From assembly GCA_964418975.1 (NCBI GenBank), contig CAYQNV010000079.1:11938-75937 (forward strand): a stretch of DNA of 64,000 nucleotides. Reading direction: 5' to 3'. Below are positions 63 through 64,000 of the stretch, one piece after another (within the stretch, counting starts at the first letter, position 1; each line of letters opens with the position of its first letter). The translations under genes were made by a program, and so were the position numbers. Origin of the DNA: an uncultured bacterium (lineage in GTDB: Bacteria > Eisenbacteria > RBG-16-71-46). The notes under the pieces are model-generated. The model did no database searches, was not told the DNA's origin, and saw nothing but the letters and a program-made list of their open reading frames with translations.

Positions 63-1970
63 ATGCGCCGACTCGCCGCACTGATCGCTACCGTCCTGCT
101 GCTGCCCGCGCTGTTCCATTCCCGCACCGCGAGCGCGACGATCACGCCAGAAGCCGAGGCTGTGCTGCAGCGCTATGTGCAGGTCTCGGGAGGCGAGGCG
201 GCATTCGCGGCCGAGAGCACGGGATACTCGCATGCGCGCATCCAGGCGTTCGGTTTCGAGGGGAGCTTCTCGGCATGGACCGCGCGCCCCCTGCGCCGCT
301 ACGCGCTCACCGAGCTGGGGCCATTCAAGCTGCGCGAGGGTGTGGACGGTGCCACGGCCTGGCGCACGGACCCCACCACGGGGGTGGTGCGCCCGCTCGC
401 CGACCATGACCTGGACCAGGCGCTCGTGGGGGCGTGGTTCGAGCTGGAGCGTTGGGCGGAACCGGGAGGGGGCGGCGGCAAGGTGACGTGGGTGGGCGTC
501 GAGCGGGACTCACTCGACACTTTCCAAGTGCTCGAGGTGATGCCACCCGACCTCGCCGGCGGCGACCGTCTGCTGCGCTCGCGACGACTGTGGTTCAGTC
601 AGGTCTCGGGCCTGCTCGCGCGCATCGACGGGCGCGACGACCAACGCGAGGTGACCACGCAGCTCACCGACTGGCGTCGCGCCGGTGCGCGGCTGCGCTC
701 GTTCGTGAACGAGTCCGGCATCACCGAGATGCCCGCCAATCGCCTGCGCGCCACATTCGACACGGTGCTCGTCAACGTGGCCGTCGACGGCCTGCCGTTC
801 GCCGCGCCGGCCGAGCGCGGCGGCGGTGTGCGCTGGCTGGCGCAGGCGGGCCGCGCGCGGCTGCCGTTCGACTACCGCGCCCGGCACGTGTGGCTCAAGG
901 CCAGCGTCAACGGCGGGGAGCCGCAGGATTTCCTGTTCGATACCGGCGCGAGCGTGACCGTGCTGGACAGCGGCTGGGTCGCCGAGCGCGGCCTGAAGAC
1001 CGAAGGCCGCATGCAGGCGGCCGGCGCCGGTGCGGCGGGCGGCGCGTCGTTCGCCTCGCTGGCATCGCTCAAGATCGCGTCCAGCTCGGGCGACGGCATC
1101 GAACTGGACGACGTGAAGGTGGCGGTGCTCGACGTGAACTCGAGCTTCGCGCCGCTGTTCTGGCGTCGCATGGCGGGGGTCATTGGCTATGACGTCATCA
1201 GTCGCTTCGTGGTCACGATCGACTACGACGACAGCGTGCTGGTGCTGCACGACCCGGTGAGCTGGCGATATGAGGGCACTGAAAAACCGCTCGCCATGGT
1301 CATGAACGGCACCGTCCCCGCCCTCACGGGCGCGCTGGACGACACGGACGAGGGACTGTTCCGCTTGGACGTTGGCAGCAGCAGTACGGTGGACCTGCAT
1401 GCGCCGTTCGCCCAGGCCAAGCGCCTCAAGGGCCGCATGGGGCGAACCCAGGCCGTGGACGGCGTGGGCTTTGGGGGCGCGTTCTCGAGCGAGATCGGCC
1501 GGCTGCGCCGCATGAACCTCGGACCCTACGAATGGGACGACCCGATCGTGTCGGTGTCGAACGCCACGCAGGGCGCGTTCGCCAGCGAGGATTTCGCGGG
1601 CACCATCGGCAATCGCGTCCTCGAACGATTCCGGGTCACGTTCGACTACCAGCGCCGGCACGTCTACCTGGAGCCCGGCGAGCGCTACGCCGCGCGCGAC
1701 CATCTCACCCGCACCGGCGCGATGTTCGCGCGGCGCAGCGGCGTCGTGACCGTGGTGGATGTGCTGTCCGCCTCGCCCGCGGATCGCGCGGGCCTGCGCG
1801 GCGGTGACGAGGTGCTGGCCGTGGACGGTCGCGGCATCGCCGACTGGGACCTGCCGGCACTGAGCGCGTTGCTGGACGACGGCGAGCCCGGGCAGCGGGT
1901 GACGGTGCGCGTCCGGCGCACGGGCCAGGAACGCACCTGCCGCATCCGTCTCGCCGAGGTGGTGCGCTGA
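63..1970 (+). CDS. Secreted retropepsin-like (clan AA) aspartic protease with two tandem half-domains and a C-terminal PDZ domain
   Basis: ORF 45..1970. GGGAGG precedes an ATG at 63. Signal peptide MRRLAALIATVLLLPALF. Two D-T/S-G catalytic-type motifs, LFDTGASVTVLDSGW and FRLDVGSSSTVDLH. C-terminal PDZ-like segment GDEVLAVDGRGIADW...RVTVRVRR. Confidence 0.7.
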   Translation: MRRLAALIATVLLLPALFHSRTASATITPEAEAVLQRYVQVSGGEAAFAAESTGYSHARIQAFGFEGSFSAWTARPLRRYALTELGPFKLREGVDGATAWRTDPTTGVVRPLADHDLDQALVGAWFELERWAEPGGGGGKVTWVGVERDSLDTFQVLEVMPPDLAGGDRLLRSRRLWFSQVSGLLARIDGRDDQREVTTQLTDWRRAGARLRSFVNESGITEMPANRLRATFDTVLVNVAVDGLPFAAPAERGGGVRWLAQAGRARLPFDYRARHVWLKASVNGGEPQDFLFDTGASVTVLDSGWVAERGLKTEGRMQAAGAGAAGGASFASLASLKIASSSGDGIELDDVKVAVLDVNSSFAPLFWRRMAGVIGYDVISRFVVTIDYDDSVLVLHDPVSWRYEGTEKPLAMVMNGTVPALTGALDDTDEGLFRLDVGSSSTVDLHAPFAQAKRLKGRMGRTQAVDGVGFGGAFSSEIGRLRRMNLGPYEWDDPIVSVSNATQGAFASEDFAGTIGNRVLERFRVTFDYQRRHVYLEPGERYAARDHLTRTGAMFARRSGVVTVVDVLSASPADRAGLRGGDEVLAVDGRGIADWDLPALSALLDDGEPGQRVTVRVRRTGQERTCRIRLAEVVR

Positions 1971-2098
1971 AGCGAGCCTGAGGCCCCGCGCACGCCGTTT
2001 CGTGGGTGGGTGAGGCGGGGGCCGTTCCGGACTCCCCGCGGGCCTCCGGCTGCCGTATGCTTACCTCACCGTCCCGTCACTCGGTTCCCGGAGGCTTG

Positions 2099-4345
2099 AT
2101 GTCGGTAGTCGGTGCCCGCCGCGCGGCCTCGTCCGTGGCGGCGCTCACGATCGTGGCTGTGCTGTGCCTGACGGGCTGCTCGCGCGAGCCGTTGTTGCTC
2201 GGGCCCAACGTGCGCCCCACGCTCGAGGTGACCCAGGCTCCCGCGAATCCCACGCAGCCGTTCTTCTACGGCTACGAGCTGCGCTGGGCGGGCTACGACG
2301 TGGATGGCCACATCGACCACTTTCGCTACGCCATCGATCCGCCCGGCCATGCGAACGCCGAGACCGTGTGGGTGATGACCCGGGAGAACCGGCGCTCGTT
2401 CCTGTTCCATTCCGACCAGCTCGACACGCTCACCGATCGGACCGCCGAGGGTTACCACACCATCGTGTTGCAAGCGGTGGATGACCGAGGCACCCACTCG
2501 GTGCCGGTGTCGCGCTCGTTCACGTCGTTCACCATCGCGCCGACGCTGCAGATCACGCAGCCGCCACCGAACCACCTGTTCTCGCCCACGTTCGGTCCGT
2601 CGTTCCGGCTGGCGTGGACCGGCTCGGACCCGGACGGACGCACGACAAACAAGCCGGTGCAATACAAGTACAAGGTGTTCAGCGAGGGCAGCGGCGAGTT
2701 CGATTTCATCACCGTGCTCGTGAATCCGGACTCGGTGCGACGGCGTTATGCTCCACGATTCAGCGAGTGGGACTCGCTCGGCGGCGACACCACCGCGGTG
2801 GACATACGCGATCTCGTGCCGGGGCAGAAGTACGTGGTGGCGGTGGTCGCGTTCGACGAGGTCGGCGCCTACTCGCCCATCATGAACCTCGACGTGAACA
2901 TGCTGTACTTCAACGTCAGTTACGCCGGCCTGCTCGGGCCCAAGATGACGGTGTACAACGAGGGCTTCTTCTTCAGCTACGGGACCGGCGGGTACTCGCT
3001 CGATCCGGCGACGTTCGTACGCACCGAAGCCGCGGCCGGCCGGCCGCTCCGCTTCAATTGGTATGGCACCACCGCCAGCGGTTCATACGTGACGGGCTAT
3101 CGCTGGATGCTCGACGGCAACATCGGCGACGAGGCCCCGCGCGAGGACGAGAACTCCCAGTTCCATCGCTGGAGCCGCTACTCGCCGCTCACGCTCGGCG
3201 TAGACCTGCCCGCGTTCGAGCCGGCCGGGAACAGCGAGACGCACACGCTCTACATCGAGGCCGTCGACAACAACCACCAGATCAGTCTCGCGGTGGTGCA
3301 GTTCGCCGTGGTTCGCGCCATCTTCGACAAAGAGCTGCTATTCGTGGACGACACGCGGCTGCTCGGCGACCGTCCGGCGGTCGGGGGATGCGTGGACCGG
3401 CCGCGCGGGGTGTGGCCCACGGCCGCCGAGCTGGACACGTTCTTCTTCGCGCGCGGCGGCAAGCCCTGGCGGTGCTACCCCGCCGGCACCCAGTCGCCCA
3501 TCGGGATCTTCCAGGGCTACGCGTTCGACACACTCGGGACTCGGTTCCTGCCGAAGGGCACGCTGACGTTGCAGCAGTTGTCCCGCTATCGGCACATCAT
3601 CTGGTACACGGACAACAAGGCGGGGCGATTCATCAACGAGCCCACGCTGACTCAAGACCCCATGTCGCAGCTTCGCTGGCTCACGCTGCCCGGCCGTACG
3701 AACCCGCTCGGCACCTGGATCACGCAGGGCGGTCAGCTGTGGATGTTCGGCGGCGGCACCGCGACGGCACTGCAGATCAACTGGGAGAAGCCCGGCAGCG
3801 CGGGGGACGTGTACTCGAATACCGACGGCGAGCTGGTGTCGGGGCGGTTCATGTATGACGTGTTCGGGTGGCGCAGCGAGATCACCGCGCGCTCCGTGGC
3901 GCAGGCCACACAGCCTCCGCATCCGCCCGGTCGCAGCACCAGCCCGCTGGACTACACGGGACTTCCCGATTACCTGTTCGAGAAGTCCGTGGACACCGAC
4001 CCGATCGCCCTGTACGCCCCGAATCGCCTCAGCCAGTCGGACTTCTATCAATCGGCGCACATCGCCGAGGGGCTCAGCAAGGCGAACGACGTTCGCGAGG
4101 ATCGCGATCCGAATCCGGACGTACGGGTCGAGGAATCGGTGGTGGACACGCTCTACGAATCCGTCGGCGGGCAGCTGGGCTCGCAGCGGCCGATCATGAC
4201 GGTTTGGCACGGCGGTGCCGGCGGCCAGATCCACGTGTTCAGCGGGTTCCAACTGTGGTATTGGCGACGCGCACAGCAGATCGAGATCCTCGACTGGGTG
4301 CTGCAAAAGGCTTGGGGGCTGTCGCGCGAGAACGTGCCGCGATAG
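2099..4345 (+). CDS. Large lipoprotein of unknown function
   Basis: GGAGG is followed by an ATG at 2099 inside ORF 2006..4345. Lipobox LCLTGCS after a hydrophobic signal peptide. 748 aa with no recognisable catalytic motif. Confidence 0.6.
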   Translation: MSVVGARRAASSVAALTIVAVLCLTGCSREPLLLGPNVRPTLEVTQAPANPTQPFFYGYELRWAGYDVDGHIDHFRYAIDPPGHANAETVWVMTRENRRSFLFHSDQLDTLTDRTAEGYHTIVLQAVDDRGTHSVPVSRSFTSFTIAPTLQITQPPPNHLFSPTFGPSFRLAWTGSDPDGRTTNKPVQYKYKVFSEGSGEFDFITVLVNPDSVRRRYAPRFSEWDSLGGDTTAVDIRDLVPGQKYVVAVVAFDEVGAYSPIMNLDVNMLYFNVSYAGLLGPKMTVYNEGFFFSYGTGGYSLDPATFVRTEAAAGRPLRFNWYGTTASGSYVTGYRWMLDGNIGDEAPREDENSQFHRWSRYSPLTLGVDLPAFEPAGNSETHTLYIEAVDNNHQISLAVVQFAVVRAIFDKELLFVDDTRLLGDRPAVGGCVDRPRGVWPTAAELDTFFFARGGKPWRCYPAGTQSPIGIFQGYAFDTLGTRFLPKGTLTLQQLSRYRHIIWYTDNKAGRFINEPTLTQDPMSQLRWLTLPGRTNPLGTWITQGGQLWMFGGGTATALQINWEKPGSAGDVYSNTDGELVSGRFMYDVFGWRSEITARSVAQATQPPHPPGRSTSPLDYTGLPDYLFEKSVDTDPIALYAPNRLSQSDFYQSAHIAEGLSKANDVREDRDPNPDVRVEESVVDTLYESVGGQLGSQRPIMTVWHGGAGGQIHVFSGFQLWYWRRAQQIEILDWVLQKAWGLSRENVPR

Positions 4346-24899: not shown

Positions 24900-25610
24900 T
24901 CAGGCCGCGCGCCGCGGCGATTCGCCCGCGGAGCGGGGCGAGCCCGGCCGCAAGCGCTCCGCGACGAGGCTCGTGACCAGGAACGCGAGCGCGGCGAGGC
25001 CGAACCCCCACGGGATCCGTGCGTCCACGGGCAGCACGTTCCGGCGCAGCTCGAGTGACGCCTCGCGCAGGTCGTCCATGCTCGAGCCGGACGAGTGCAC
25101 GCGCACGTAGTAGTCGCCCTCCTGCGGCACATCGTACGTGGCAAGGCTCGTGCGCGTCATGACGATCGAGGCCTCGTCGTTTCGACTGCCGAAGAAGCTC
25201 GCGGCTTCCCACTGGCGGGCGCCGCCGGCGTCCTCCAGCGCGACCTCGTAGCGCAGGCGCGTCGAGCCGACCGGGGCGTAAGCCGCGCGCAGGACCGCGC
25301 GCATGGGATTCATGCCCGGATCCAAGCGTAGCGGGCCATACCGCGGAGCATCGGGCGCAGCGCTCACGTACTCCATCGCGTGGGTCACGTCGAGGCTCAG
25401 CACGCGTACGCCCGAGCCATAGAGCGCCCAGAGCCCATAGCCCACCGCCACCGCGGCGCACGGCAGGAAGCCCCAACCGCTCCACCGAGCGAGCGCGCTT
25501 CGCGGCTGGCCGTGCGGGGGGAGACCACTCGCAGCCGCCCGCTCTCGTTCCATCCAGTGGCGCTGATCGTTGTCCGGGTCCGTCATGCGAGGGGTTTCGG
25601 CGCCGCGCAC
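24900..25610 (-). CDS. Hypothetical membrane-anchored protein
   Basis: ORF with an N-terminal TM segment WGFLPCAAVAVGYGLWALYG and a second C-terminal TM. No motif recognised. Confidence 0.4.
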   Translation of the reverse strand: MRGAETPRMTDPDNDQRHWMERERAAASGLPPHGQPRSALARWSGWGFLPCAAVAVGYGLWALYGSGVRVLSLDVTHAMEYVSAAPDAPRYGPLRLDPGMNPMRAVLRAAYAPVGSTRLRYEVALEDAGGARQWEAASFFGSRNDEASIVMTRTSLATYDVPQEGDYYVRVHSSGSSMDDLREASLELRRNVLPVDARIPWGFGLAALAFLVTSLVAERLRPGSPRSAGESPRRAA

Positions 25611-25627
25611 GCCAAGCTTAAGCGGTC

Positions 25628-26842
25628 GGTTGTGCGGCGAAGATTGTGGGTGCGGCTCCGGTGGGCGCTGCCCGCCGGGGCCTCAGGTTGTTTCAGTAGG
25701 CCAGCTTGAGCCGGTGCCTCCGCTCGTTCTGGATGGGTGCCGTGCGGACCTCGCCGCGGTAGTAGCGCTCCCACACCGGTGGCAGTCCGACCCGATCCGG
25801 GAACTGCCGTCGGGCGAGCAGTTCCGCGACCGGGATCGGTCGCGGGAGGATGCCGGCGCGCATCGCTGGCGTGCCGCCGCCGTGGCGCTCGGAGAACGGC
25901 TTGCTCACGTTCTGCCACAGGATCAGCCAGGCCGCGCGCTCCACCACCGACTGGTGCCGCTTGGAGAACGCGATGGTCTCACGCTTGTGGTTGGCGCTGT
26001 TGTGCCGCAGCAGCAGGTCGAGGCGGTTGACCGGGAACAGCGGGTTGCCGGCGGTGCGCGCCGCGAGGCTGCTGGTGCGCTCGTGCGAGACGTCGTAGCC
26101 CGCGAGCCGGCGCAGGGCTCGCGGGTAGTCCGCGTGCTCGTCGGAGCGCACCACCAGGGCCTGCGGCAAGCGGGCGGCGAGGCGCAACGCCTCGGTCATG
26201 CCATGCTCGATGGCGCGCGGGTCGGGCCGGCCGTGCTCGGCTTCGAGGGCGGCCCGCCGTCGTTTCTGTCCCGCGGTCATGCGGCCCTTGCGGCGCAGGG
26301 GCGAGTGGGTCAGGCCATAGACGTAGTGGCTCCCCGCACCGACGACGAGGTTCAGGTGCAGGGGGAAGAACTGGCTCCTGGCGAACGACTCGAACCCGTC
26401 GCAGACGACGGGCTCGAGCAGCGGCCCGTCCGGGAGGAGCTCGCCGAGCTTCACCAGGGCGAGGCGGCCGATGCGGGCGGCATGGCGGCCGACGGTGGTG
26501 GGCGAGCACTTGGCTTCGCGGGCGATCTGGCGGTAGCCCGAGCAGGCGAGCAGCCGGTGGGCGGTGGGCAGGAGCACGTCGGGACGCTTCAACCAGTAGC
26601 TGCCGTGGAAGGTCTGCTCGCTGAAGGTGTGGCCACAGTGGCCACAGCGGAAACGGCGGATGCGCTGCGGCGAGGCCTGGCGGGTGAACGAGCCGTGCCG
26701 GATCCAGCGCCAACCGTCGACGTAACGGTGGAAGGGACACTCCCTTCGCGGACAGTGCGGGGGCACGAACGGCACGCTCGTGCGCGACATGCCCCCGGAT
26801 CACTGCACGACCCGTACCGCCTACATTCTTCGCCGCACAACC
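25628..26842. mobile_element. Insertion sequence (about 1215 bp) with terminal inverted repeats and a single transposase
   Basis: Left end GGTTGTGCGGCGAAGAT (25628..25644) matches the reverse complement of the right end ATTCTTCGCCGCACAACC (26825..26842) at 16 of 17 positions. One ORF lies between. It is inserted in the divergent intergenic region between 24900..25610 and the kinase gene. Confidence 0.65.
25693..26790 (-). CDS. IS transposase with N-terminal zinc ribbon (IS1595-like; family assignment uncertain)
   Basis: N-terminal CPRRECPFH...CGHCGH zinc-ribbon, a feature of IS1595-type transposases. Basic, 365 aa. Flanked by terminal inverted repeats. Confidence 0.55.
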   Translation of the reverse strand: MSRTSVPFVPPHCPRRECPFHRYVDGWRWIRHGSFTRQASPQRIRRFRCGHCGHTFSEQTFHGSYWLKRPDVLLPTAHRLLACSGYRQIAREAKCSPTTVGRHAARIGRLALVKLGELLPDGPLLEPVVCDGFESFARSQFFPLHLNLVVGAGSHYVYGLTHSPLRRKGRMTAGQKRRRAALEAEHGRPDPRAIEHGMTEALRLAARLPQALVVRSDEHADYPRALRRLAGYDVSHERTSSLAARTAGNPLFPVNRLDLLLRHNSANHKRETIAFSKRHQSVVERAAWLILWQNVSKPFSERHGGGTPAMRAGILPRPIPVAELLARRQFPDRVGLPPVWERYYRGEVRTAPIQNERRHRLKLAY

Positions 26843-26866
26843 TTTTGCTTGTGACCCGACAACTGC

Positions 26867-28060
26867 TTGATAGTCTTGGACATGAGGAGGGATGCGAGCG
26901 TGAGGCATCTGTCCACCGCGACCACCCGGACGCTACGGTCCATACGCCGGACCGCTGGCGCGCCGCGGCGCCTGTTGAAACCCGCGCAGGTCGTGACGAG
27001 CCCCGAGACAGGGCTGCAGTACTCCGTCGAAGGACTGCTCGGCGAGGGTGGATTCGGTCAGGCCTACGTGGCGCGCCGATTGGGGCGGTCGTCACGGGTC
27101 GCGGACATCGTCTGCATCAAGATCAGCGTGTACATCGACGGCTGGCTGCGCGAGGCGTACTTCGGGCAACTGCTCGACGGACATCCGCGGGCGATCCGCG
27201 TGTTCGACGCCTTCCCGCTCGTCTCCAGCGACGGCCCCATCCATTACTGCCTGGTGCTGGAATACGCCCGCCACGGAGACCTGAGATCGTTCCTGCACCG
27301 GAATGGCAAGGAGTGGAACGAGAAGCGAGCGCGCACCGAGATCGCGGGGGTGCTCGAGGTATTGCGCAAACTGCATCGCGGCCAGACGCTGCATCGTGAC
27401 CTGACGCCCCTGAACCTGTTCGTGTGCGACGGCCCGACGTTGAAGCTGGGCGATTTCGGGATCGCCCGACCGCAGAGCGACCGGCGTGGCGTCGCCGCGC
27501 GCACGATGAACTCGTTCACCGCGCCGAGCGACATCTTGGCGGGCACCGCGCCCAAGTGGCAGGCGAGGGACGACGTCTACCAGGTGGGGCAGCTGCTCGG
27601 CATGCTCATGCGCGGCGACGCGGACACGCGCGTGCGCACGAAGGAGGTGCGCGAGCTGCCGTGCAGCGATCACATGAAAGAGATCGTCTACCGCTGCATC
27701 GGCGAGCGGCGCAAGCGCTATGAGAGCGCGGACGAGTTGATCGAGGCGCTCCGGAACCCGCCCGCGCCGCTTCGGGTCGGGGCGTTACGAACGCTGAAGG
27801 GCGTGCATCTCGCGTTCACCGGCTTCCTCAGCCGGCCGAGGGCCGAGGCGGCGAAGGCGGCCCGGCGTGCGGGTGCGATCGTCCACACCGGAAGCTCCGC
27901 CAGGACCACGGTGATCGTGCGCGGGCGCCCGAACGCGCTTCAGGCCGCCGGTCGGGATGCCGGGCGAAAGCTCATGGACATCAAGCGCCTACGCGAGAAG
28001 GGCCACAAGATCACGCTGCTCGACGAAGCGAAGTTCTGGCGGCTGGTGGCGAAGCGGTGA
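26867..28060 (+). CDS. Hanks-type Ser/Thr protein kinase fused to a C-terminal BRCT domain
   Basis: Gly loop LGEGGFGQAY, catalytic HRDLTPLNLF, DFGIA, and an APE-like region. C-terminus LKGVHLAFTGFLSRPRAEAAKAARRAGAIVHTGSSARTTVIVRGRP...KITLLDEAKFWRLV matches a BRCT fold as in the LigA C-terminus. Confidence 0.8.
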   Translation: MIVLDMRRDASVRHLSTATTRTLRSIRRTAGAPRRLLKPAQVVTSPETGLQYSVEGLLGEGGFGQAYVARRLGRSSRVADIVCIKISVYIDGWLREAYFGQLLDGHPRAIRVFDAFPLVSSDGPIHYCLVLEYARHGDLRSFLHRNGKEWNEKRARTEIAGVLEVLRKLHRGQTLHRDLTPLNLFVCDGPTLKLGDFGIARPQSDRRGVAARTMNSFTAPSDILAGTAPKWQARDDVYQVGQLLGMLMRGDADTRVRTKEVRELPCSDHMKEIVYRCIGERRKRYESADELIEALRNPPAPLRVGALRTLKGVHLAFTGFLSRPRAEAAKAARRAGAIVHTGSSARTTVIVRGRPNALQAAGRDAGRKLMDIKRLREKGHKITLLDEAKFWRLVAKR

Positions 28061-28127
28061 ACGGGACCCATCTGCCAACGCGCCCGGAGCGGTTCCGCCC
28101 CGGGCGCGTCGCGGCGCGGTGGCAGGC

Positions 28128-30389
28128 TCAGCGGCTGACCACCAACCTTCGGCCGAAGTGCTCGCCACTGGCTTCCACCCGCATCAGGTAGAGACCCGCG
28201 TTCACATTGCGTCCGTGTGTGTCCGTGCCCTTCCACTCCAAATAGTGCACGCCCGCGCCGTGCGCCTCGTCGGCGACCACCGCGACCAGCCGACCGGCGA
28301 CGTCGTGCACGGTGGCACGCACCCAGCCGTCGCGCGGCAACTCGACCGCGAGGCGCGCGCCACCTCGGGTCGGGTTCGGAGCGAATGCGCTCACGCGCAG
28401 CGCCGACGGCGGCGCCGAGCGCGGCGTGTCCAGCGTGGGCTGCTGGCCGCCCACGAAATTCGCTTTCGCATTGGTCGAACCCGACATTCCCGCGAACGTG
28501 CCGCCCGGCGCCCCCACGAAGTCGAACCGGTAGGTGATGTCGAAGAAGCTGTCTACCGCCCAGTCCCCGGTGGCCTGCATCGTGTAGGAAGTGTGGCCGA
28601 GGCTCGGCATGCCGAAGCCGGTGCCGGCTGTGATGCGCAGCAGGTCGAAGTCAGGATCGCCCAGTGGAAGCTGGGCGTTCGTCTGCCAGACGAGCGTCTC
28701 GAAGTGTTGCGTGGGATCGAATGGCGTGCGAGGCGCGGTGTGCGTTTCGAACGGGCCGATCATTGCGAACGTGCGATTGTATCCAGCGAAGATCCCGGTG
28801 CCGTGCAACGCGACTCGATACTGCACATCCGACGCTTCTATGTTGCCGCCGAGCGTCCCGCCCGGCACCGCACTGATGAGAGAGAGCGGCACGATCTCGA
28901 TATCCGCGAGCAGCGGCGAGCCGATCGGCACGCCGCTGATCAGCCCCTCCGCGTGACGCACGCTTGCGTAGGGCGAGCCGCAGAACGGCGGGAAGTCCGC
29001 GGTGCCCGCGCCGTTGTCGGGCGCGTTGCAAGATCCTTCGCGCTCGTGTCCTTTCTGCGCGCGCGTCTCGCCGGTGGTGGAGCCGGACAATCCCGTGAGC
29101 GGGCCCCCGAGAGCGCCGACCATGTCGATTCGATAGGTGACGTCGAAGAAGCTGTCGATCGACCACAGTCCGCCGGGTGCGTACGTGAGCGACGTGTGCC
29201 CCGGGGTCGGCATACCGAAGCCGGAGCCGCTCGAGATCCGCAGCAGATCGAAATCGGGGTCTGCGATGAGCTGGCCGAATTGCGTGTTCAACTGCGCCGG
29301 CATGCCCTGGTGCGAAGCCAGGCTCATGGGCGGCCCCAGGTCGCGATCCCACTGCGTCAGCATGGACCCGAAGTAGCTGTATCCGGAAAGACCGCCCTCC
29401 CCGTGCAGTTCGAGCACAAGCGTCTCGGTGTTGTCCATGGTCGAGCCGCCCAGCGTGCTGCCCGACCCAAACACCGGAGGAACCGGATCCACGAACCAAT
29501 TGAGCCGCCCGACGATGAAGTCGCCGCTGCCGACCGCGCCTTCCCACACGAGCACGTCATGGAGCGTCATGAGTTGAGTCAGCGGCTGGTGGATGTCGGC
29601 CGTGGCGCCGCCGTTGTCGGGCACGAGCAGCGGATCGATCCACGCGCGGCCCGCGCGCTGGCGGTGCGCCGACACCGTGCTGCCCGACAACAGGGCGAAC
29701 GGGCCACCCGGATTGCCGACGAAATCGATGCGATAGACGATGTCGAAGAAGCTGTCCACGTGCCAGTCGCCGCTCGAGTGCTGCGTGAGCGTGGTACGTC
29801 CCGGGCTCGGCAGGGCGAAGTCGCTGCCGGCCGTGATGCGCAACAGATCGAAGTCGGGATCGCCGGTGATCTGTCCGAACAGCTGGAACAGGTCGATGGC
29901 GAAGTTCTGGGGATTCGTGCCGGGCACCTGGGGACCGGTATGGAACGCGCCCACCCCGATGGGCATGTTGATCGTACGCGAGTACCCCGCGAAGGCGCCG
30001 ATGCCGTTGATCTCCAACCCGATGCGTCCGTTGATCGTCGTCGCCTCGCCGCCGAGCGCGCCGCCCGGAACGTCCGAGACGATGGAGAGATCGAAGATCC
30101 GGAGCTTGCCGATCAGCGATGATCCGGCGGGGAGCCCATTGCGGATCAGCAGGATCCCATCGTGGCTGCTGAACCCGCGGGTTCCCTCGGGCGGGAAGCC
30201 GCCGTTGCCACCGGGATCCGAGACGGAGTAGCTCGGCATCGTTGACCACGCAGGCTGTGACGACGCGTTGGAAGGGCAGAGTGCGCCGCATACGGACAAC
30301 ACCAGGAGCGCGCGAATCAGGACATGGCGCGCCGGCGCAAGAGTGCGGTTCGGCCGTGCCGCTCGTGAAAGGCGTGGCGAGGAGCCCAT
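28128..30389 (-). CDS. Secreted protein with three ~200-aa tandem repeats and a T9SS-type C-terminal sorting domain
   Basis: Signal peptide. The repeat hallmark GDPDFDLLRITAG...DSFFD(I/V)(T/V)YR(I/F)D(F/M)VG..GG......SGST occurs three times (aa ~176, 376, 577). C-terminal ...PNPTRGGARLAVELPRDGWVRATVHDVAGRLV...AGLYLMRVEASGEHFGRRLVVSR resembles the Por_Secre_tail / FlgD-Ig-like sorting domain. Confidence 0.75.
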   Translation of the reverse strand: MGSSPRLSRAARPNRTLAPARHVLIRALLVLSVCGALCPSNASSQPAWSTMPSYSVSDPGGNGGFPPEGTRGFSSHDGILLIRNGLPAGSSLIGKLRIFDLSIVSDVPGGALGGEATTINGRIGLEINGIGAFAGYSRTINMPIGVGAFHTGPQVPGTNPQNFAIDLFQLFGQITGDPDFDLLRITAGSDFALPSPGRTTLTQHSSGDWHVDSFFDIVYRIDFVGNPGGPFALLSGSTVSAHRQRAGRAWIDPLLVPDNGGATADIHQPLTQLMTLHDVLVWEGAVGSGDFIVGRLNWFVDPVPPVFGSGSTLGGSTMDNTETLVLELHGEGGLSGYSYFGSMLTQWDRDLGPPMSLASHQGMPAQLNTQFGQLIADPDFDLLRISSGSGFGMPTPGHTSLTYAPGGLWSIDSFFDVTYRIDMVGALGGPLTGLSGSTTGETRAQKGHEREGSCNAPDNGAGTADFPPFCGSPYASVRHAEGLISGVPIGSPLLADIEIVPLSLISAVPGGTLGGNIEASDVQYRVALHGTGIFAGYNRTFAMIGPFETHTAPRTPFDPTQHFETLVWQTNAQLPLGDPDFDLLRITAGTGFGMPSLGHTSYTMQATGDWAVDSFFDITYRFDFVGAPGGTFAGMSGSTNAKANFVGGQQPTLDTPRSAPPSALRVSAFAPNPTRGGARLAVELPRDGWVRATVHDVAGRLVAVVADEAHGAGVHYLEWKGTDTHGRNVNAGLYLMRVEASGEHFGRRLVVSR
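28470..30120. repeat. Three tandem ~600-bp coding repeats (diverged, intragenic)
   Basis: Protein-level period of about 200 aa. It causes the multiple overlapping alternative-frame ORFs in the track (for example 28651..29547 and 29557..30405). Confidence 0.65.
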
Positions 30390-61102: not shown

Positions 61103-64000
61103 TCAGGCCGGCCGAATCTCGTTCGCCAGCGCTGCCGCCTCCTGGAGCGCCTGTTCCAGCCCGAGGCCCTCGCCGTCTGCTCGCAGACGAGCCGCTTCGC
61201 TCTCGCCCAGCGTTGCCGAGAGCCGGGCGGCGAGACGTTCCACTTCGACCGCCTCCGCCGACAGGAGGGGAGAGCTGAGCGCCGCCCGCGCAGTGGCCGC
61301 GGCCGCCAGCAGGCGCGCGGACTCGGCCGGGCGGCCACAGGCGAACAGCCACTCCGCCATCGCCTCCAGCGCGTACACCGCCTCACGCGGGGCCTCGAGG
61401 CCTGCGAGCACCTTGAGGCACTCGCGCAACCGCTCCCCGGCCTCGGCCGGCGCCCCCACGCGGAGCAGCGAGGAGACGAGCGAGGCCAGGCACAGCGCCT
61501 CAGTGCTGCGGTCACCCACTTCACGGAAGATCGCGAGCGCGGTCTCCAGCTTCGCGCGGCCGTGGTCTCCAGTCCCCTGAGCCCATTGCACCGTGGCGAT
61601 GTTGTGCAGCGCCATCGCGGCGCCGCGGCGTTCGCCGAGCGCTTCGTAATGCGCCAGGCTCTCGGCGCTGATCGCCAGCGCGTCCTCGAAACGCGACTGG
61701 AGCATGGCCACCACGCCGAGGCCGGCGAGCGCGCGAGCCACGCCCTTTTCGTCCTGTTGAGCCCGGCAGATGGCGAGGCTCTCCTCGAGCAGCGGACGGG
61801 ACGAGGTGTAGTCGCCCTTGATGCCCGCGAACCCCGCCGCGCGCGTGAGCACCTTGGCGCGGAGCGGCGTGGGCAAACGGGCGGTGTCGCGTGCCAGCGC
61901 TTCCTGGCACAGGCGAAGTCCGAGCGCGTAGCGCCCGCGCACCGACCAGAAGCGCTGCGCCCCTGCGACCAGGCGGAGTCCGCGCGCGGCGCCATCCTCG
62001 GCGTGGGAGCACCACGACAGCGCGGCGAGCAGGTTCTCCTCCTCGGGTCCCAACTCGCGCAGAGTCGCCTGCATCCGCGGGCCGCTCATGGCAACCTCGG
62101 CGCCCTCGGCCAGCGCGAGGTATTCGGCGAGGTGTCGCTCGCGAAGCGCAGCGTGCTCCAGGTGCGCCTCGAACTTCTCCAGCGCGAACCGCCACACGCT
62201 CTCGAGGAACCGGTAGCGGGGCACCCCGCCCTCGCCGTGCTGCACCACGACGAGGGATCGCTCGACCAATCGCGTGAGCAGGTCAAGCACGTCGAACTCG
62301 TCGCCGTCGTCGGAACAAACAGCGGTGGCGCGCTCGAGCGTCCAGCCCCCCGTGAACACCGCGAGGCGGCGGAGCAGGTCCTGTTCCGGCGCGAGCAGGT
62401 GGTCCCAGCTCCACTGGATCACGGCGAGGACCGTCTGCTGCCGCGACGGCGCGCCGGCTCCCGCACGCGTCAACAGCTTGAACCGGTCACCGAGGCGGGC
62501 ACGGATCTGGTCCACGCCCAGGAGCCGCACGCGCGCGGCCGCCAGCTCCAGCGCCAGCGGAATACCATCCAACCGGCGGCAGATCTCGGCCACGGCCGAA
62601 GCGTTCGCGTCGGCGAGCTCAAACGCGGGCGAGGCGGCGCGCGCGCGTTCGCTGAACAGCCGCACGGCCTCGCTGGCGTCGGCCGCGGCGGCCGTGCGCA
62701 CGTGCTCGCCCGGCACCGACAGCATCGGCACGATGTAGAGCGTCTCGCCTTCGATGCCGAGGGGTTCTCGGTTCGTCACCAGCAGTTTCGCCTGAGGACA
62801 GGCGCGCAACAGCTCCGCGGCCAGGGTGGAACAGGCCGCCGGATGCGTCTCGGCGTTGTCCAGCAACACCAGCGCGCAGCGCGGCGCAAGCCAGGCGGTC
62901 ACGCCCTCGCTGAGCGGGCGCCCGGGTTCGTCGCGCACGCCGAGCGTCGCGGCGAGCGCCTCGATCAGTCGCTCGGGCTCGGTGAGCGGCGCCACGTCCA
63001 CGAACCACACGCCGTCGCGGAATGTCTCGAGCTGGCTTTCGGCCAACTGCAGCGCCAGGCGCGTCTTCCCCGAACCGCCGATGCCGCTGAGCGTGAGCAG
63101 CCGCGTCTCGCCCAGCGCGCGCGCGCACTCGGCCAGCGTGACCTGTCGTCCCACGAAGCTCGTGGCCTGCGCGGGCAGGTTGTTTGGCGTGGTAACGTGC
63201 TCGCCCTCGCGTAGCGCGGCAGCACGCCGGATGCCGAGCGCCTCCTCGAGCGTGAAGCGTAGCTCGCGAGCCGATCGCGGACGCAGCTCGGTGTCCTTCG
63301 CGAGGCACGCCTCGACCATGGCGCGCACGGTGGCCGGCGTGCGCTCGGGCAGCGCACCGAGGTCGGCGTTGTCGTTCAGAACCTGCGCCATGGCCACGTA
63401 CGGGTCGTCCGCCGGGAACGCGCGCCGGCCGCTCAAGCACTCGTAGAGCAGGCATCCGAACGCGAACACATCGGTGCGCTCGTCCTGCGTTCCGGCCAGC
63501 ACCTGTTCGGGACTCATGTAACCCGGCGTGCCCGACACGGGCCCCGACATCGAGGCCGACTGCTGGCTCGAGACGCTCATGAATCCCGCCACCGGCGGGC
63601 TCGCGGCGCTCACGGATGGCCGCGGATTGGCGAGCCCGTACGTGCGCTTGGCGAGTCCGAAGTCGAGCACCTTCACGAGCCCGCGCGGTCCGAGCATGAC
63701 GTTGCCCGGCTTCAGGTCGCGGTGTACGACGCCACGCTCGTGCGCCACCTCGAGCGCCTGCGCCACCTGGGCCAAAACCTGAAGTGCCTCGTCCACGGTG
63801 AATCGTTCGCGCACCAGCCGCTGGGCGAGCGACTCGCCCTCGACCAGCTCCAACACCAGCACCATGGTGCCGCCCGGCATCTCCTCGAGGCCGTGGATCG
63901 TGGCGATGTTCGGATGGTTCAACGAAGCCAGCGCCAGCGCCTCGTTCCGGAACAGTGCCAGTGCCTCCGAATCCGCGGTGAGCCGCGACGGGAGCAGCTT
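61103..64000 (-). CDS. Ser/Thr protein kinase fused to STAND/NB-ARC-type NTPase and TPR repeats (5' end beyond window)
   Basis: The kinase catalytic core is visible at the window edge (HRDLKPGNVML, DFGLA, GTPGYMSPE). A P-loop NTPase follows (LTLSGIGGSGKTRLALQLAE, hhhhD Walker B ALVLLDNAETH), then about 350 aa of TPR-like helical repeats. The reading frame stays open to nt 64000. Confidence 0.75.
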   Translation of the reverse strand, partial: KLLPSRLTADSEALALFRNEALALASLNHPNIATIHGLEEMPGGTMVLVLELVEGESLAQRLVRERFTVDEALQVLAQVAQALEVAHERGVVHRDLKPGNVMLGPRGLVKVLDFGLAKRTYGLANPRPSVSAASPPVAGFMSVSSQQSASMSGPVSGTPGYMSPEQVLAGTQDERTDVFAFGCLLYECLSGRRAFPADDPYVAMAQVLNDNADLGALPERTPATVRAMVEACLAKDTELRPRSARELRFTLEEALGIRRAAALREGEHVTTPNNLPAQATSFVGRQVTLAECARALGETRLLTLSGIGGSGKTRLALQLAESQLETFRDGVWFVDVAPLTEPERLIEALAATLGVRDEPGRPLSEGVTAWLAPRCALVLLDNAETHPAACSTLAAELLRACPQAKLLVTNREPLGIEGETLYIVPMLSVPGEHVRTAAAADASEAVRLFSERARAASPAFELADANASAVAEICRRLDGIPLALELAAARVRLLGVDQIRARLGDRFKLLTRAGAGAPSRQQTVLAVIQWSWDHLLAPEQDLLRRLAVFTGGWTLERATAVCSDDGDEFDVLDLLTRLVERSLVVVQHGEGGVPRYRFLESVWRFALEKFEAHLEHAALRERHLAEYLALAEGAEVAMSGPRMQATLRELGPEEENLLAALSWCSHAEDGAARGLRLVAGAQRFWSVRGRYALGLRLCQEALARDTARLPTPLRAKVLTRAAGFAGIKGDYTSSRPLLEESLAICRAQQDEKGVARALAGLGVVAMLQSRFEDALAISAESLAHYEALGERRGAAMALHNIATVQWAQGTGDHGRAKLETALAIFREVGDRSTEALCLASLVSSLLRVGAPAEAGERLRECLKVLAGLEAPREAVYALEAMAEWLFACGRPAESARLLAAAATARAALSSPLLSAEAVEVERLAARLSATLGESEAARLRADGEGLGLEQALQEAAALANEIRPA

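Follow-up and report, generated by a model that had tools for sequence, protein, structure and literature searches.

We analysed a window of 64,000 nucleotides of contig CAYQNV010000079.1, from an uncultured bacterium, and focused on a gene that joins a Hanks-type Ser/Thr protein kinase domain to a single C-terminal BRCT domain. The gene lies beside an insertion sequence (IS), and the features of the locus are collected in Table 1. The protein, hereafter the kinase-BRCT protein, unites known domains in a combination that is undescribed in the searchable literature, yet widespread and highly conserved.

Table 1. Features of the kinase-BRCT locus, in window coordinates (ORF, open reading frame; aa, amino acids)
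Feature	Position	Strand	Basis or remark
IS, 1,215 bp	25628..26842		23-nt imperfect inverted repeats at 25628-25650 and 26820-26842, 21 of 23 positions complementary
Transposase-like ORF of the IS, 365 aa	25693..26790	-	Homologues and inverted repeats
5' in-frame extension (TTG 26867, ATG 26882)	26867..26899	+	Probably 5' untranslated region with Shine-Dalgarno sequence
Kinase-BRCT coding sequence	26900..28060	+	386 aa and stop codon; GTG 26900 taken as the most likely start
N-terminal tail (ORF residues 12-49)	26900..27013	+	First part predicted disordered; 'ATTR' invariant in the clade
Hanks-type protein kinase domain (ORF residues ~50-297)	27014..27757	+	Pfam Pkinase; PknB structures; AlphaFold2 model
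Catalytic loop HRDLTPLN, Thr180 replacing the canonical Lys	27392..27415	+	Read directly
Single C-terminal BRCT domain (ORF residues ~305-397)	27779..28057	+	Profile, fold and pocket
BRCT phosphate pocket: T318/G319; R325; K368	27818-27823; 27839-27841; 27968-27970	+	Alignment

Gene model and domains

The ORF named in the preliminary description (26867 to 28060, plus strand, 397 residues from TTG) is present, and residue numbers throughout follow it. GTG 26900 is almost certainly the true start of the gene, because a Shine-Dalgarno sequence (AGGAGG, 26885-26890) stands nine bases ahead of this codon, a 386-residue product that starts there is already recorded as an exact match in a protein collection (77,642-bp contig, NCBI source), and the ATG or GTG starts of the homologues share its alignment column. 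Upstream of this column, no conservation was found among the aligned relatives. With this start, the distance between the gene and the IS is therefore 57 bp and not the 25 bp first given. The coding sequence reads as intact, and its G+C content is native (68%, against 70% for the window). In the N-terminal tail, the two threonines of the 'ATTR' motif, T19 and T20 (codons 26921-26926), are invariant in 28 close homologues. The motif is absent from distant relatives, in which the tail itself is missing, and 43 of the 58 proteins in our family alignment, which are 29-93% identical to the window protein, have a gap at this position. AlphaFold2 assigns residues 1-25 a per-residue confidence (pLDDT) below 50.

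The assignment of the N-terminal domain to the Hanks-type kinases is confirmed. Pfam Pkinase (PF00069) matches residues 52-255 with an E value of 8.4e-21 and 75 bits against a cut-off of 31.7, and the nearest solved sequence relatives are PknB kinase domains (E 1.6e-15). The AlphaFold2 model of the whole protein has a mean pLDDT of 91.1 and a predicted template-modelling score (pTM) of 0.88, with disorder confined to the first 25 residues. A Foldseek search with this model recovers PknB, CDK6, Aurora and other kinases (E ~1e-14, target-normalised TM score ~0.7), which shows the bilobal kinase fold. When the whole model was compared with the PDB by Foldseek, no chain carrying both a kinase and a BRCT domain was found; the matches cover the kinase domain only, with query-normalised TM scores of at most 0.54, and the architecture is therefore without a solved structure.

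The catalytic residues are retained across the family. The glycine-rich loop (G-loop) residues G59, G61, G62 and G64 are present, and G61, K85 (beta3 Lys), E96 (alphaC Glu), H176, D178 (catalytic Asp), P181, N183 (catalytic-loop Asn), D196 and G198 of the DFG motif (196-198), and D236 (alphaF Asp) are invariant in all 58 aligned members. The preliminary description had asked whether the catalytic Asp and Lys might be missing; K85, E96, D178, N183 and D196 are thus found without exception. It had also pointed to the threonine in the catalytic loop, and this replacement is real and family-wide, with Thr in 51, Ser in 3 and Lys in 4 of the 58 members. The Lys of the HRDxKxxN consensus is the one kinase hallmark that is lacking, at Thr180; since 54 of the 58 members have Thr or Ser there, the odd loop is a conserved trait of the family and not a sign of decay. 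The presence of R177 makes the protein a Hanks kinase of the RD type, which is predicted to be soluble and located in the cytoplasm.

The C-terminal BRCT domain falls below the Pfam threshold when the single sequence is scored (PF00533, residues 310-387, 17.8 bits against a cut-off of 21.3, E 0.004), and it is established by the family profile and the modelled fold. The domain is detected individually in 42 of the 58 family members (best E 4.2e-7), and in NCBIfam the C-terminus matches the BRCT-bearing C-termini of DnaQ-type (E 6e-6) and LigA models. A profile built from the last ~100 residues and compared with the PDB finds the BRCT domain of Thermus thermophilus LigA (1l7b, E 4e-12), that of human RFC1 (2k6g, 6e-12) and Escherichia coli LigA (2owo, 7.5e-11). 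Both the full-length and the C-terminal AlphaFold models show the b1-a1-b2-b3-a2-b4-a3 topology as assigned by DSSP, at residues 314-395 in the full-length model. The 50 Foldseek matches listed for the C-terminal model are nearly all BRCT domains or chains that bear one (LigA, RFC1, Rad4, Dbf4, XRCC1 and TopBP1), and the structural alignment to RFC1 gives 34-35% identity. The profile search and structure prediction that the preliminary description had proposed therefore bear out both domains, Pkinase above its cut-off and BRCT by family profile and fold, and the C-terminal 90 residues are not the generic Rossmann-like linker that it had considered.

Four residues of the BRCT domain form a conserved set, T318 (55 of 58 members), G319 (53), R325 (52) and K368 (56), which align to the ITG, ERDEA (its R) and GTKI segments of RFC1 and which we take to be a 5'-phosphate or phosphoserine pocket. 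The domain is strongly basic: its 93 residues carry a net charge of +16 (family median +10). A linker of ~10 residues joins it to the kinase C-lobe, and the full-length pTM predicts a rigid packing of the two domains against each other. The BRCT domain is of the DNA-binding class of LigA and RFC1, and the window protein is predicted to bind DNA. The isolated BRCT domain of RFC1 binds DNA with a Kd of ~10 nM and prefers 5'-phosphate ends (PMC9293009).

Distribution and genomic surroundings

More than 120 proteins align to the window protein over their full length at 72-93% identity, and it is 93% identical to one of them, P0001. In data with one genome per species, relatives occur in at least 342 species, of which the best 80 are 67-76% identical. 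These 80 come from metagenome-assembled genomes labelled Candidatus Eisenbacteria (a candidate phylum) or Acidobacteriota (Vicinamibacterales and Thermoanaerobaculia), and complete chromosomes are included. The lineage is not Gemmatimonadota, which the preliminary description had named among the phyla to survey: the closest relatives carry the two labels just given. It had also called the architecture unusual: the fusion is indeed undescribed in the searchable literature, but it is not rare, being abundant in soil metagenomes as well as present in this many species. In a neighbour-joining tree, the window protein groups with the Eisenbacteria-labelled sequences and the Acidobacteriota proteins fall into other clades, so that the tree roughly tracks the taxon labels, a pattern that would be expected of mainly vertical descent. 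Compared with the 93% identical relative at locus L084, the synonymous divergence (dS) is 0.48 and the ratio of nonsynonymous to synonymous divergence (dN/dS) is 0.09, which indicates strong purifying selection. An exhaustive search of representatives clustered at 50% identity returned 204 clusters at E <=1e-30. Kinase-BRCT proteins that match over the full length at 31-47% identity are among them, as are longer proteins of 500-547 residues. The matches in the IMG/VR viral contigs are generic kinase domains only, mostly of giant viruses, and none of them carries a BRCT domain.

The neighbours of the gene in the window are of the housekeeping kind: a P-type ATPase, a 3-keto-disaccharide hydrolase, an arginase, a secreted FlgD_ig protein, a BBE oxidase and an ABC-2 permease. 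The annotated surroundings of four relatives are likewise ordinary. When ORFs were clustered over 81 loci with shadow ORFs masked, no neighbour family was found in more than 10 loci, and the ORFs closest to the gene in ~75 loci represent 150 Pfam families, each present in 4 loci at most. The 137 flanking ORFs analysed for the relatives match defence models only sporadically and MADS models not at all; no MADS partner gene lies beside the window gene either. The kinase-BRCT gene thus stands alone: it is chromosomal, behaves vertically and is under strong purifying selection.

Two candidate partners were examined and rejected. A downstream gene that seemed to accompany the kinase in 64 of the 81 loci consists of shadow ORFs that overlap the kinase in other frames of this 70% G+C DNA, and an Exo_endo_phos gene overlaps the kinase stop codon in locus L002 in an arrangement that is not general. 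In the window itself, 25570-27399 (+), 27957-30122 (+), 26589-27095 (-) and others are long shadow ORFs overlapping real genes. Among the nearest flanks of the ~75 loci (L004-L080), an AlkZ-like DNA glycosylase recurs 4 times, an adenylate kinase 4 times and a PP2C (SpoIIE) phosphatase 3 times, which is probably synteny within sub-clades and not functional linkage.

Upstream of the kinase-BRCT start in Acidobacteriota loci, at a distance of 26-140 nt, the plus strand carries a 13-nt palindrome, TCAGC-TAT-GCTGA. Its exact core, CAGCTATGCTG, occurs in 12 Acidobacteriota loci from several clades and nowhere else on either strand in the 870 kb of these loci, and ~16 loci match the 13-mer with at most 2 mismatches (palindrome loci: L008, L014, L020, L023, L024, L036, L037, L039, L040, L046, L047, L051, L053 and L056). 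The palindrome may serve as an operator specific to this gene or as a -10 region. Neither the window nor the Eisenbacteria-labelled clade has it, and no upstream motif common to that clade was found.

The IS proposed in the preliminary description is borne out by terminal inverted repeats around a transposase-like ORF, with the right repeat ending 24 nt before position 26867, and it is present once in the window. The ORF has 3,334 homologues; most are 365 residues long and come from contigs of 1.2-2 kb, and some bear the label 'transposase-like protein'. Among the 120 homologues listed, identities are 69-87% and none has a recorded Pfam family. Its domain matches are limited to weak zinc-ribbon, helix-turn-helix, ISL3 and IS1 (N-terminal) hits, and it looks like a member of an uncatalogued IS family. 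No target-site duplication was found, as the flanks AAGCGGTC and TTTTGCTT differ. The IS-free locus L084 is collinear with the window from 26840 onward, and divergently upstream of its kinase gene it has two YCII genes and a gene for an extracytoplasmic function (ECF) sigma factor (DUF6596), none of which is present in the window. Where L084 has positions 756-3175, the window (25348-26842) has ~280 bp of unmatched sequence and the IS instead. The lack of a target-site duplication together with the missing sigma factor and YCII genes therefore links the IS to a deletion or rearrangement, and suggests a putative IS-associated deletion upstream of the kinase-BRCT gene. The native sequence left ahead of the start is the 57 bp that include the Shine-Dalgarno sequence, the IS having replaced the rest, and transcription of the gene here is predicted to depend on these 57 bp or on read-out from the IS.

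Distant relatives of the same architecture have different surroundings: 4 of the 8 sampled, at 42-47% identity, adjoin defence genes. One (P0125, locus L086) overlaps the 3' end of an operon that encodes a DEAD/YjiV_N/MZB helicase of 2,106 residues, presumably Druantia-like, and an IS3 element follows P0125. Another (P0142, L085) lies beside type I restriction-modification genes, Mrr and a HigA-like gene; a third (P0127, L087) beside SNF2 and PLD-like genes and an IS3 element; and a fourth (P0135, L090) beside a Lit-type Peptidase_U49 gene. A fifth, P0131, follows an uncharacterised DUF6361/helicase operon, and the other three lie on short, uninformative contigs. The ~200-residue genes beside L086 and L087 were considered as a common partner and rejected, being unrelated to each other. 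A location in defence islands and a patchy distribution are thus found for 4 of the 8 sampled distant relatives and not for the window clade. A profile search that started from the distant relatives alone was dominated by the close clade, and neither a new architecture nor a new name emerged from it.

The long relatives of 500-547 residues (L085 8001-9644; also P0131, P0143, P0153, P0155, P0157 and P0167) have an N-terminal extension of ~130-180 residues before the kinase-BRCT core. The TY-Chap3 domain (PF22552) is found in 6 of the 8 long members of the alignment (best E 1.6e-20), and both P0142 and P0131 carry it; the three-domain TY-Chap3-kinase-BRCT architecture is found in defence-type neighbourhoods. 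TY-Chap3 has been predicted to act as a peptide-binding chaperone in counter-viral systems (PMC9503650).

The window holds two further features of note. The 753-residue protein encoded at 28128-30389 (-) has a C-terminal FlgD_ig domain and three internal repeats, and a single L084 segment of ~190 bp has three matches in the window, at ~28470-28661, 29074-29261 and 29682-29864. At 61103-63922 (-), a 939-residue ORF shows a weak tblastn match to the kinase domain (E 0.001, 26% identity) and is probably a second, unrelated Ser/Thr kinase gene.

Proposed function and competing explanations

To the observed domain identities, conservation and genomic context we add a ligand and an activity that we infer. 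The reading that we favour, tentatively and with slightly less than an even chance, is a kinase that nucleic acid tethers or activates, with a basic BRCT domain that would bind DNA nicks or 5'-phosphate ends. Tethering by the BRCT domain would follow the manner of its RFC1 and LigA counterparts, and the nucleic acid bound would most likely be DNA at nicks, gaps or 5'-phosphate ends. Binding to DNA would raise the local concentration of the kinase and so promote trans-autophosphorylation, and the activated kinase would then phosphorylate DNA-associated targets. The outcome would be a phospho-signal that responds to DNA damage or to foreign DNA, analogous to the DNA-activated YabT of Bacillus. 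The family would probably have originated among defence-island kinases, with the window clade as a fixed, housekeeping-like derivative.

Several observations weigh against a DNA-tethered kinase. No DNA-repair gene consistently adjoins the kinase-BRCT loci, and a promoter and terminator consensus scan of 26600-28300, which takes in the 57 bp ahead of the start, found no promoter, terminator or SOS-like element. The ligand is a prediction, and the same pocket binds phosphopeptides in other BRCT domains; kinase activity is likewise predicted, for a loop that lacks the catalytic Lys. In addition, there are strong matches in defence libraries, half of the eight sampled distant relatives adjoin defence genes, and some of them carry TY-Chap3. 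The preliminary description had raised both nucleic-acid or DNA sensing and a conflict system, and these two ideas are the two leading explanations.

The main competing explanation is a single-gene anti-phage abortive-infection kinase that works in the manner of Stk2 or PD-T4-6, which we consider somewhat unlikely for the window protein. What the BRCT domain detects would be ends or nicks in phage DNA, or else a mark that is phosphorylated or ADP-ribosylated in the course of infection, and the switched-on kinase would phosphorylate host or phage proteins and thereby stop the infection. In PADLOC, the protein matches mad6 (E 8.5e-27) and many PD-T4-6 models (best E 1.9e-24, PDLC04042; the PADLOC output gives E values but no curated threshold for these models), and the top NCBIfam match is MAD6 (NF047741). 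However, the PD-T4-6 models span the generic kinase domain only, and the MAD6 score of 57.9 bits compares with an equivalog cut-off of 460. The defence genes beside L085, L086, L087 and L090 and the TY-Chap3 domain in most of the long alignment members argue for an anti-phage role, whereas the clade to which the window protein belongs looks like a core gene by its 67-76% identity among the best 80 of at least 342 species, by a tree that tracks taxa and by its low dN/dS. Housekeeping genes surround it, the 137 flanking ORFs match next to no defence models, and no BRCT-bearing relative is found in IMG/VR. The window clade thus lies outside defence islands, unlike the 4 of 8 distant relatives that stand beside defence genes. 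In a further reading, anti-phage kinases that sense DNA ends or nicks through a LigA/RFC1-type BRCT domain were domesticated in Acidobacteriota and Eiseniibacteriota as a core single-copy kinase responding to DNA breaks or replication stress; we regard this as an unlikely, speculative course of events.

The BRCT domain may instead be a reader of phosphopeptides and not a DNA binder, which we judge doubtful. It would bind the protein's own phosphorylated 'ATTR' threonines, for autoregulation or oligomerisation, or dock primed phospho-substrates as the FHA domains of Chk2 and Rad53 do. A pocket of the T-G...K type serves the binding of phosphoserine and phosphothreonine in the BRCT domains of BRCA1, TopBP1 and Rad4, and Rad4 and TopBP1 are among the sequence and fold matches; T19 and T20 are, besides, invariant in the disordered tail of the close clade. 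However, the pocket is family-wide whereas the TT motif is confined to the close clade, the nearest BRCT relatives are of the DNA-binding LigA/RFC1 class, and the domain has a high positive charge. Finally, an unconventional kinase, either an ATPase or scaffold as in Bud32 or an enzyme acting on a non-protein substrate (a nucleic-acid end or a nucleotide) brought by the BRCT domain, is very improbable: small-molecule kinases of the protein-kinase fold typically lack the catalytic-loop Lys, as 54 of the 58 members do, and there are weak matches to Bud32, Kdo/WaaP, ABC1, APH and RIO models, but all remaining protein-kinase hallmarks are kept without exception, among them the RD arginine, a complete activation segment and the alphaF Asp. 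Pkinase is also the best model by a wide margin, and the nearest structures are those of genuine protein kinases.

The sensors usually found on bacterial Hanks kinases are of the PASTA, FHA, TPR or transmembrane kind, and coupling to a BRCT domain would give phospho-signalling a direct link to DNA structure. The family is abundant in two poorly studied soil phyla and offers a compact, soluble test case of 386 residues, with K85, D178, T180, T318, R325 and K368 as mutational targets. The presence of relatives in defence islands next to a conserved chromosomal clade also points to the possible recruitment of an immune sensor to housekeeping, or the reverse.

Comparison with known systems

We searched the literature for BRCT domains with Hanks kinases, kinomes, phage defence and TY-Chap. 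In the searchable literature, no description of a kinase-BRCT fusion was found, and no paper that joins BRCT, a kinase domain, phage and defence systems; a search on MADS brought up nothing of use on MAD6. An atlas of bacterial Ser/Thr kinases with 42 families does not mention BRCT, and a review of BRCT domains discusses bacterial ones only for LigA and the Pol III epsilon subunit. No NCBIfam family claims the protein, and the source annotations listed read generic protein kinase or hypothetical protein throughout.

Compared with PknB of Mycobacterium tuberculosis (1o6y and 1mru), the window protein shares the fold, the G-loop, the beta3 Lys, the alphaC Glu, the HRD and DFG motifs and the RD character at ~24-26% identity. 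Unlike PknB, it has no transmembrane helix or PASTA domain and adds the C-terminal BRCT domain, and its catalytic loop reads HRDLTPxN where that of PknB reads HRDVKPxN. Bud32/PRPK and the RIO kinases have Thr or Ser in place of the catalytic-loop Lys (HGDLT/SxxN). They resemble the kinase-BRCT family in this Lys-less loop and in the weak Bud32 and RIO matches that the family gives, but the window protein differs from them in its full-size C-lobe, activation segment and RD arginine, and Pkinase remains its best model.

For the C-terminal domain, LigA and RFC1 are the closest known systems by both profile and fold. Their BRCT domains are likewise single, basic and of the DNA-binding type, with the TG, R and K of the pocket kept, but they sit on a ligase or on an AAA+ clamp loader, whereas that of the window protein sits on a kinase and is only predicted to bind DNA. 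YabT of Bacillus subtilis is a Hanks kinase whose activation is reported to require a DNA-binding motif (PMC3708118, PMC6333020), and it would be a functional analogue of the proposed DNA-dependent activation. YabT, which phosphorylates RecA, differs in that it uses a short basic juxtamembrane motif, is anchored in the membrane and has no BRCT domain.

The defence kinases PD-T4-6, Stk2 and MAD6 of MADS are the best matches in the defence libraries, and defence islands are where some distant kinase-BRCT relatives are found. Only the kinase domain is similar, and no mad, BREX or other partner genes lie near the window gene; PD-T4-6, Stk2 and MAD6 are not known to carry a BRCT domain. In eukaryotes, Chk2 and Rad53 combine an FHA domain with a kinase, and the Dbf4-dependent kinase (DDK, Cdc7-Dbf4) consists of a kinase and a BRCT-bearing subunit. 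Both resemble the window protein in that a reader of damage or replication is joined to a Ser/Thr kinase, and the BRCT domain of Dbf4 is among the fold matches. In DDK, however, the BRCT domain is on a separate subunit, and the likeness is one of analogy only, with no orthology. If the domestication considered above did take place, the domesticated kinase would be a bacterial counterpart of this eukaryotic pairing of a reader with a checkpoint kinase, as in Chk2/Rad53 and DDK, with a Lys-less HRDLTPxN loop.

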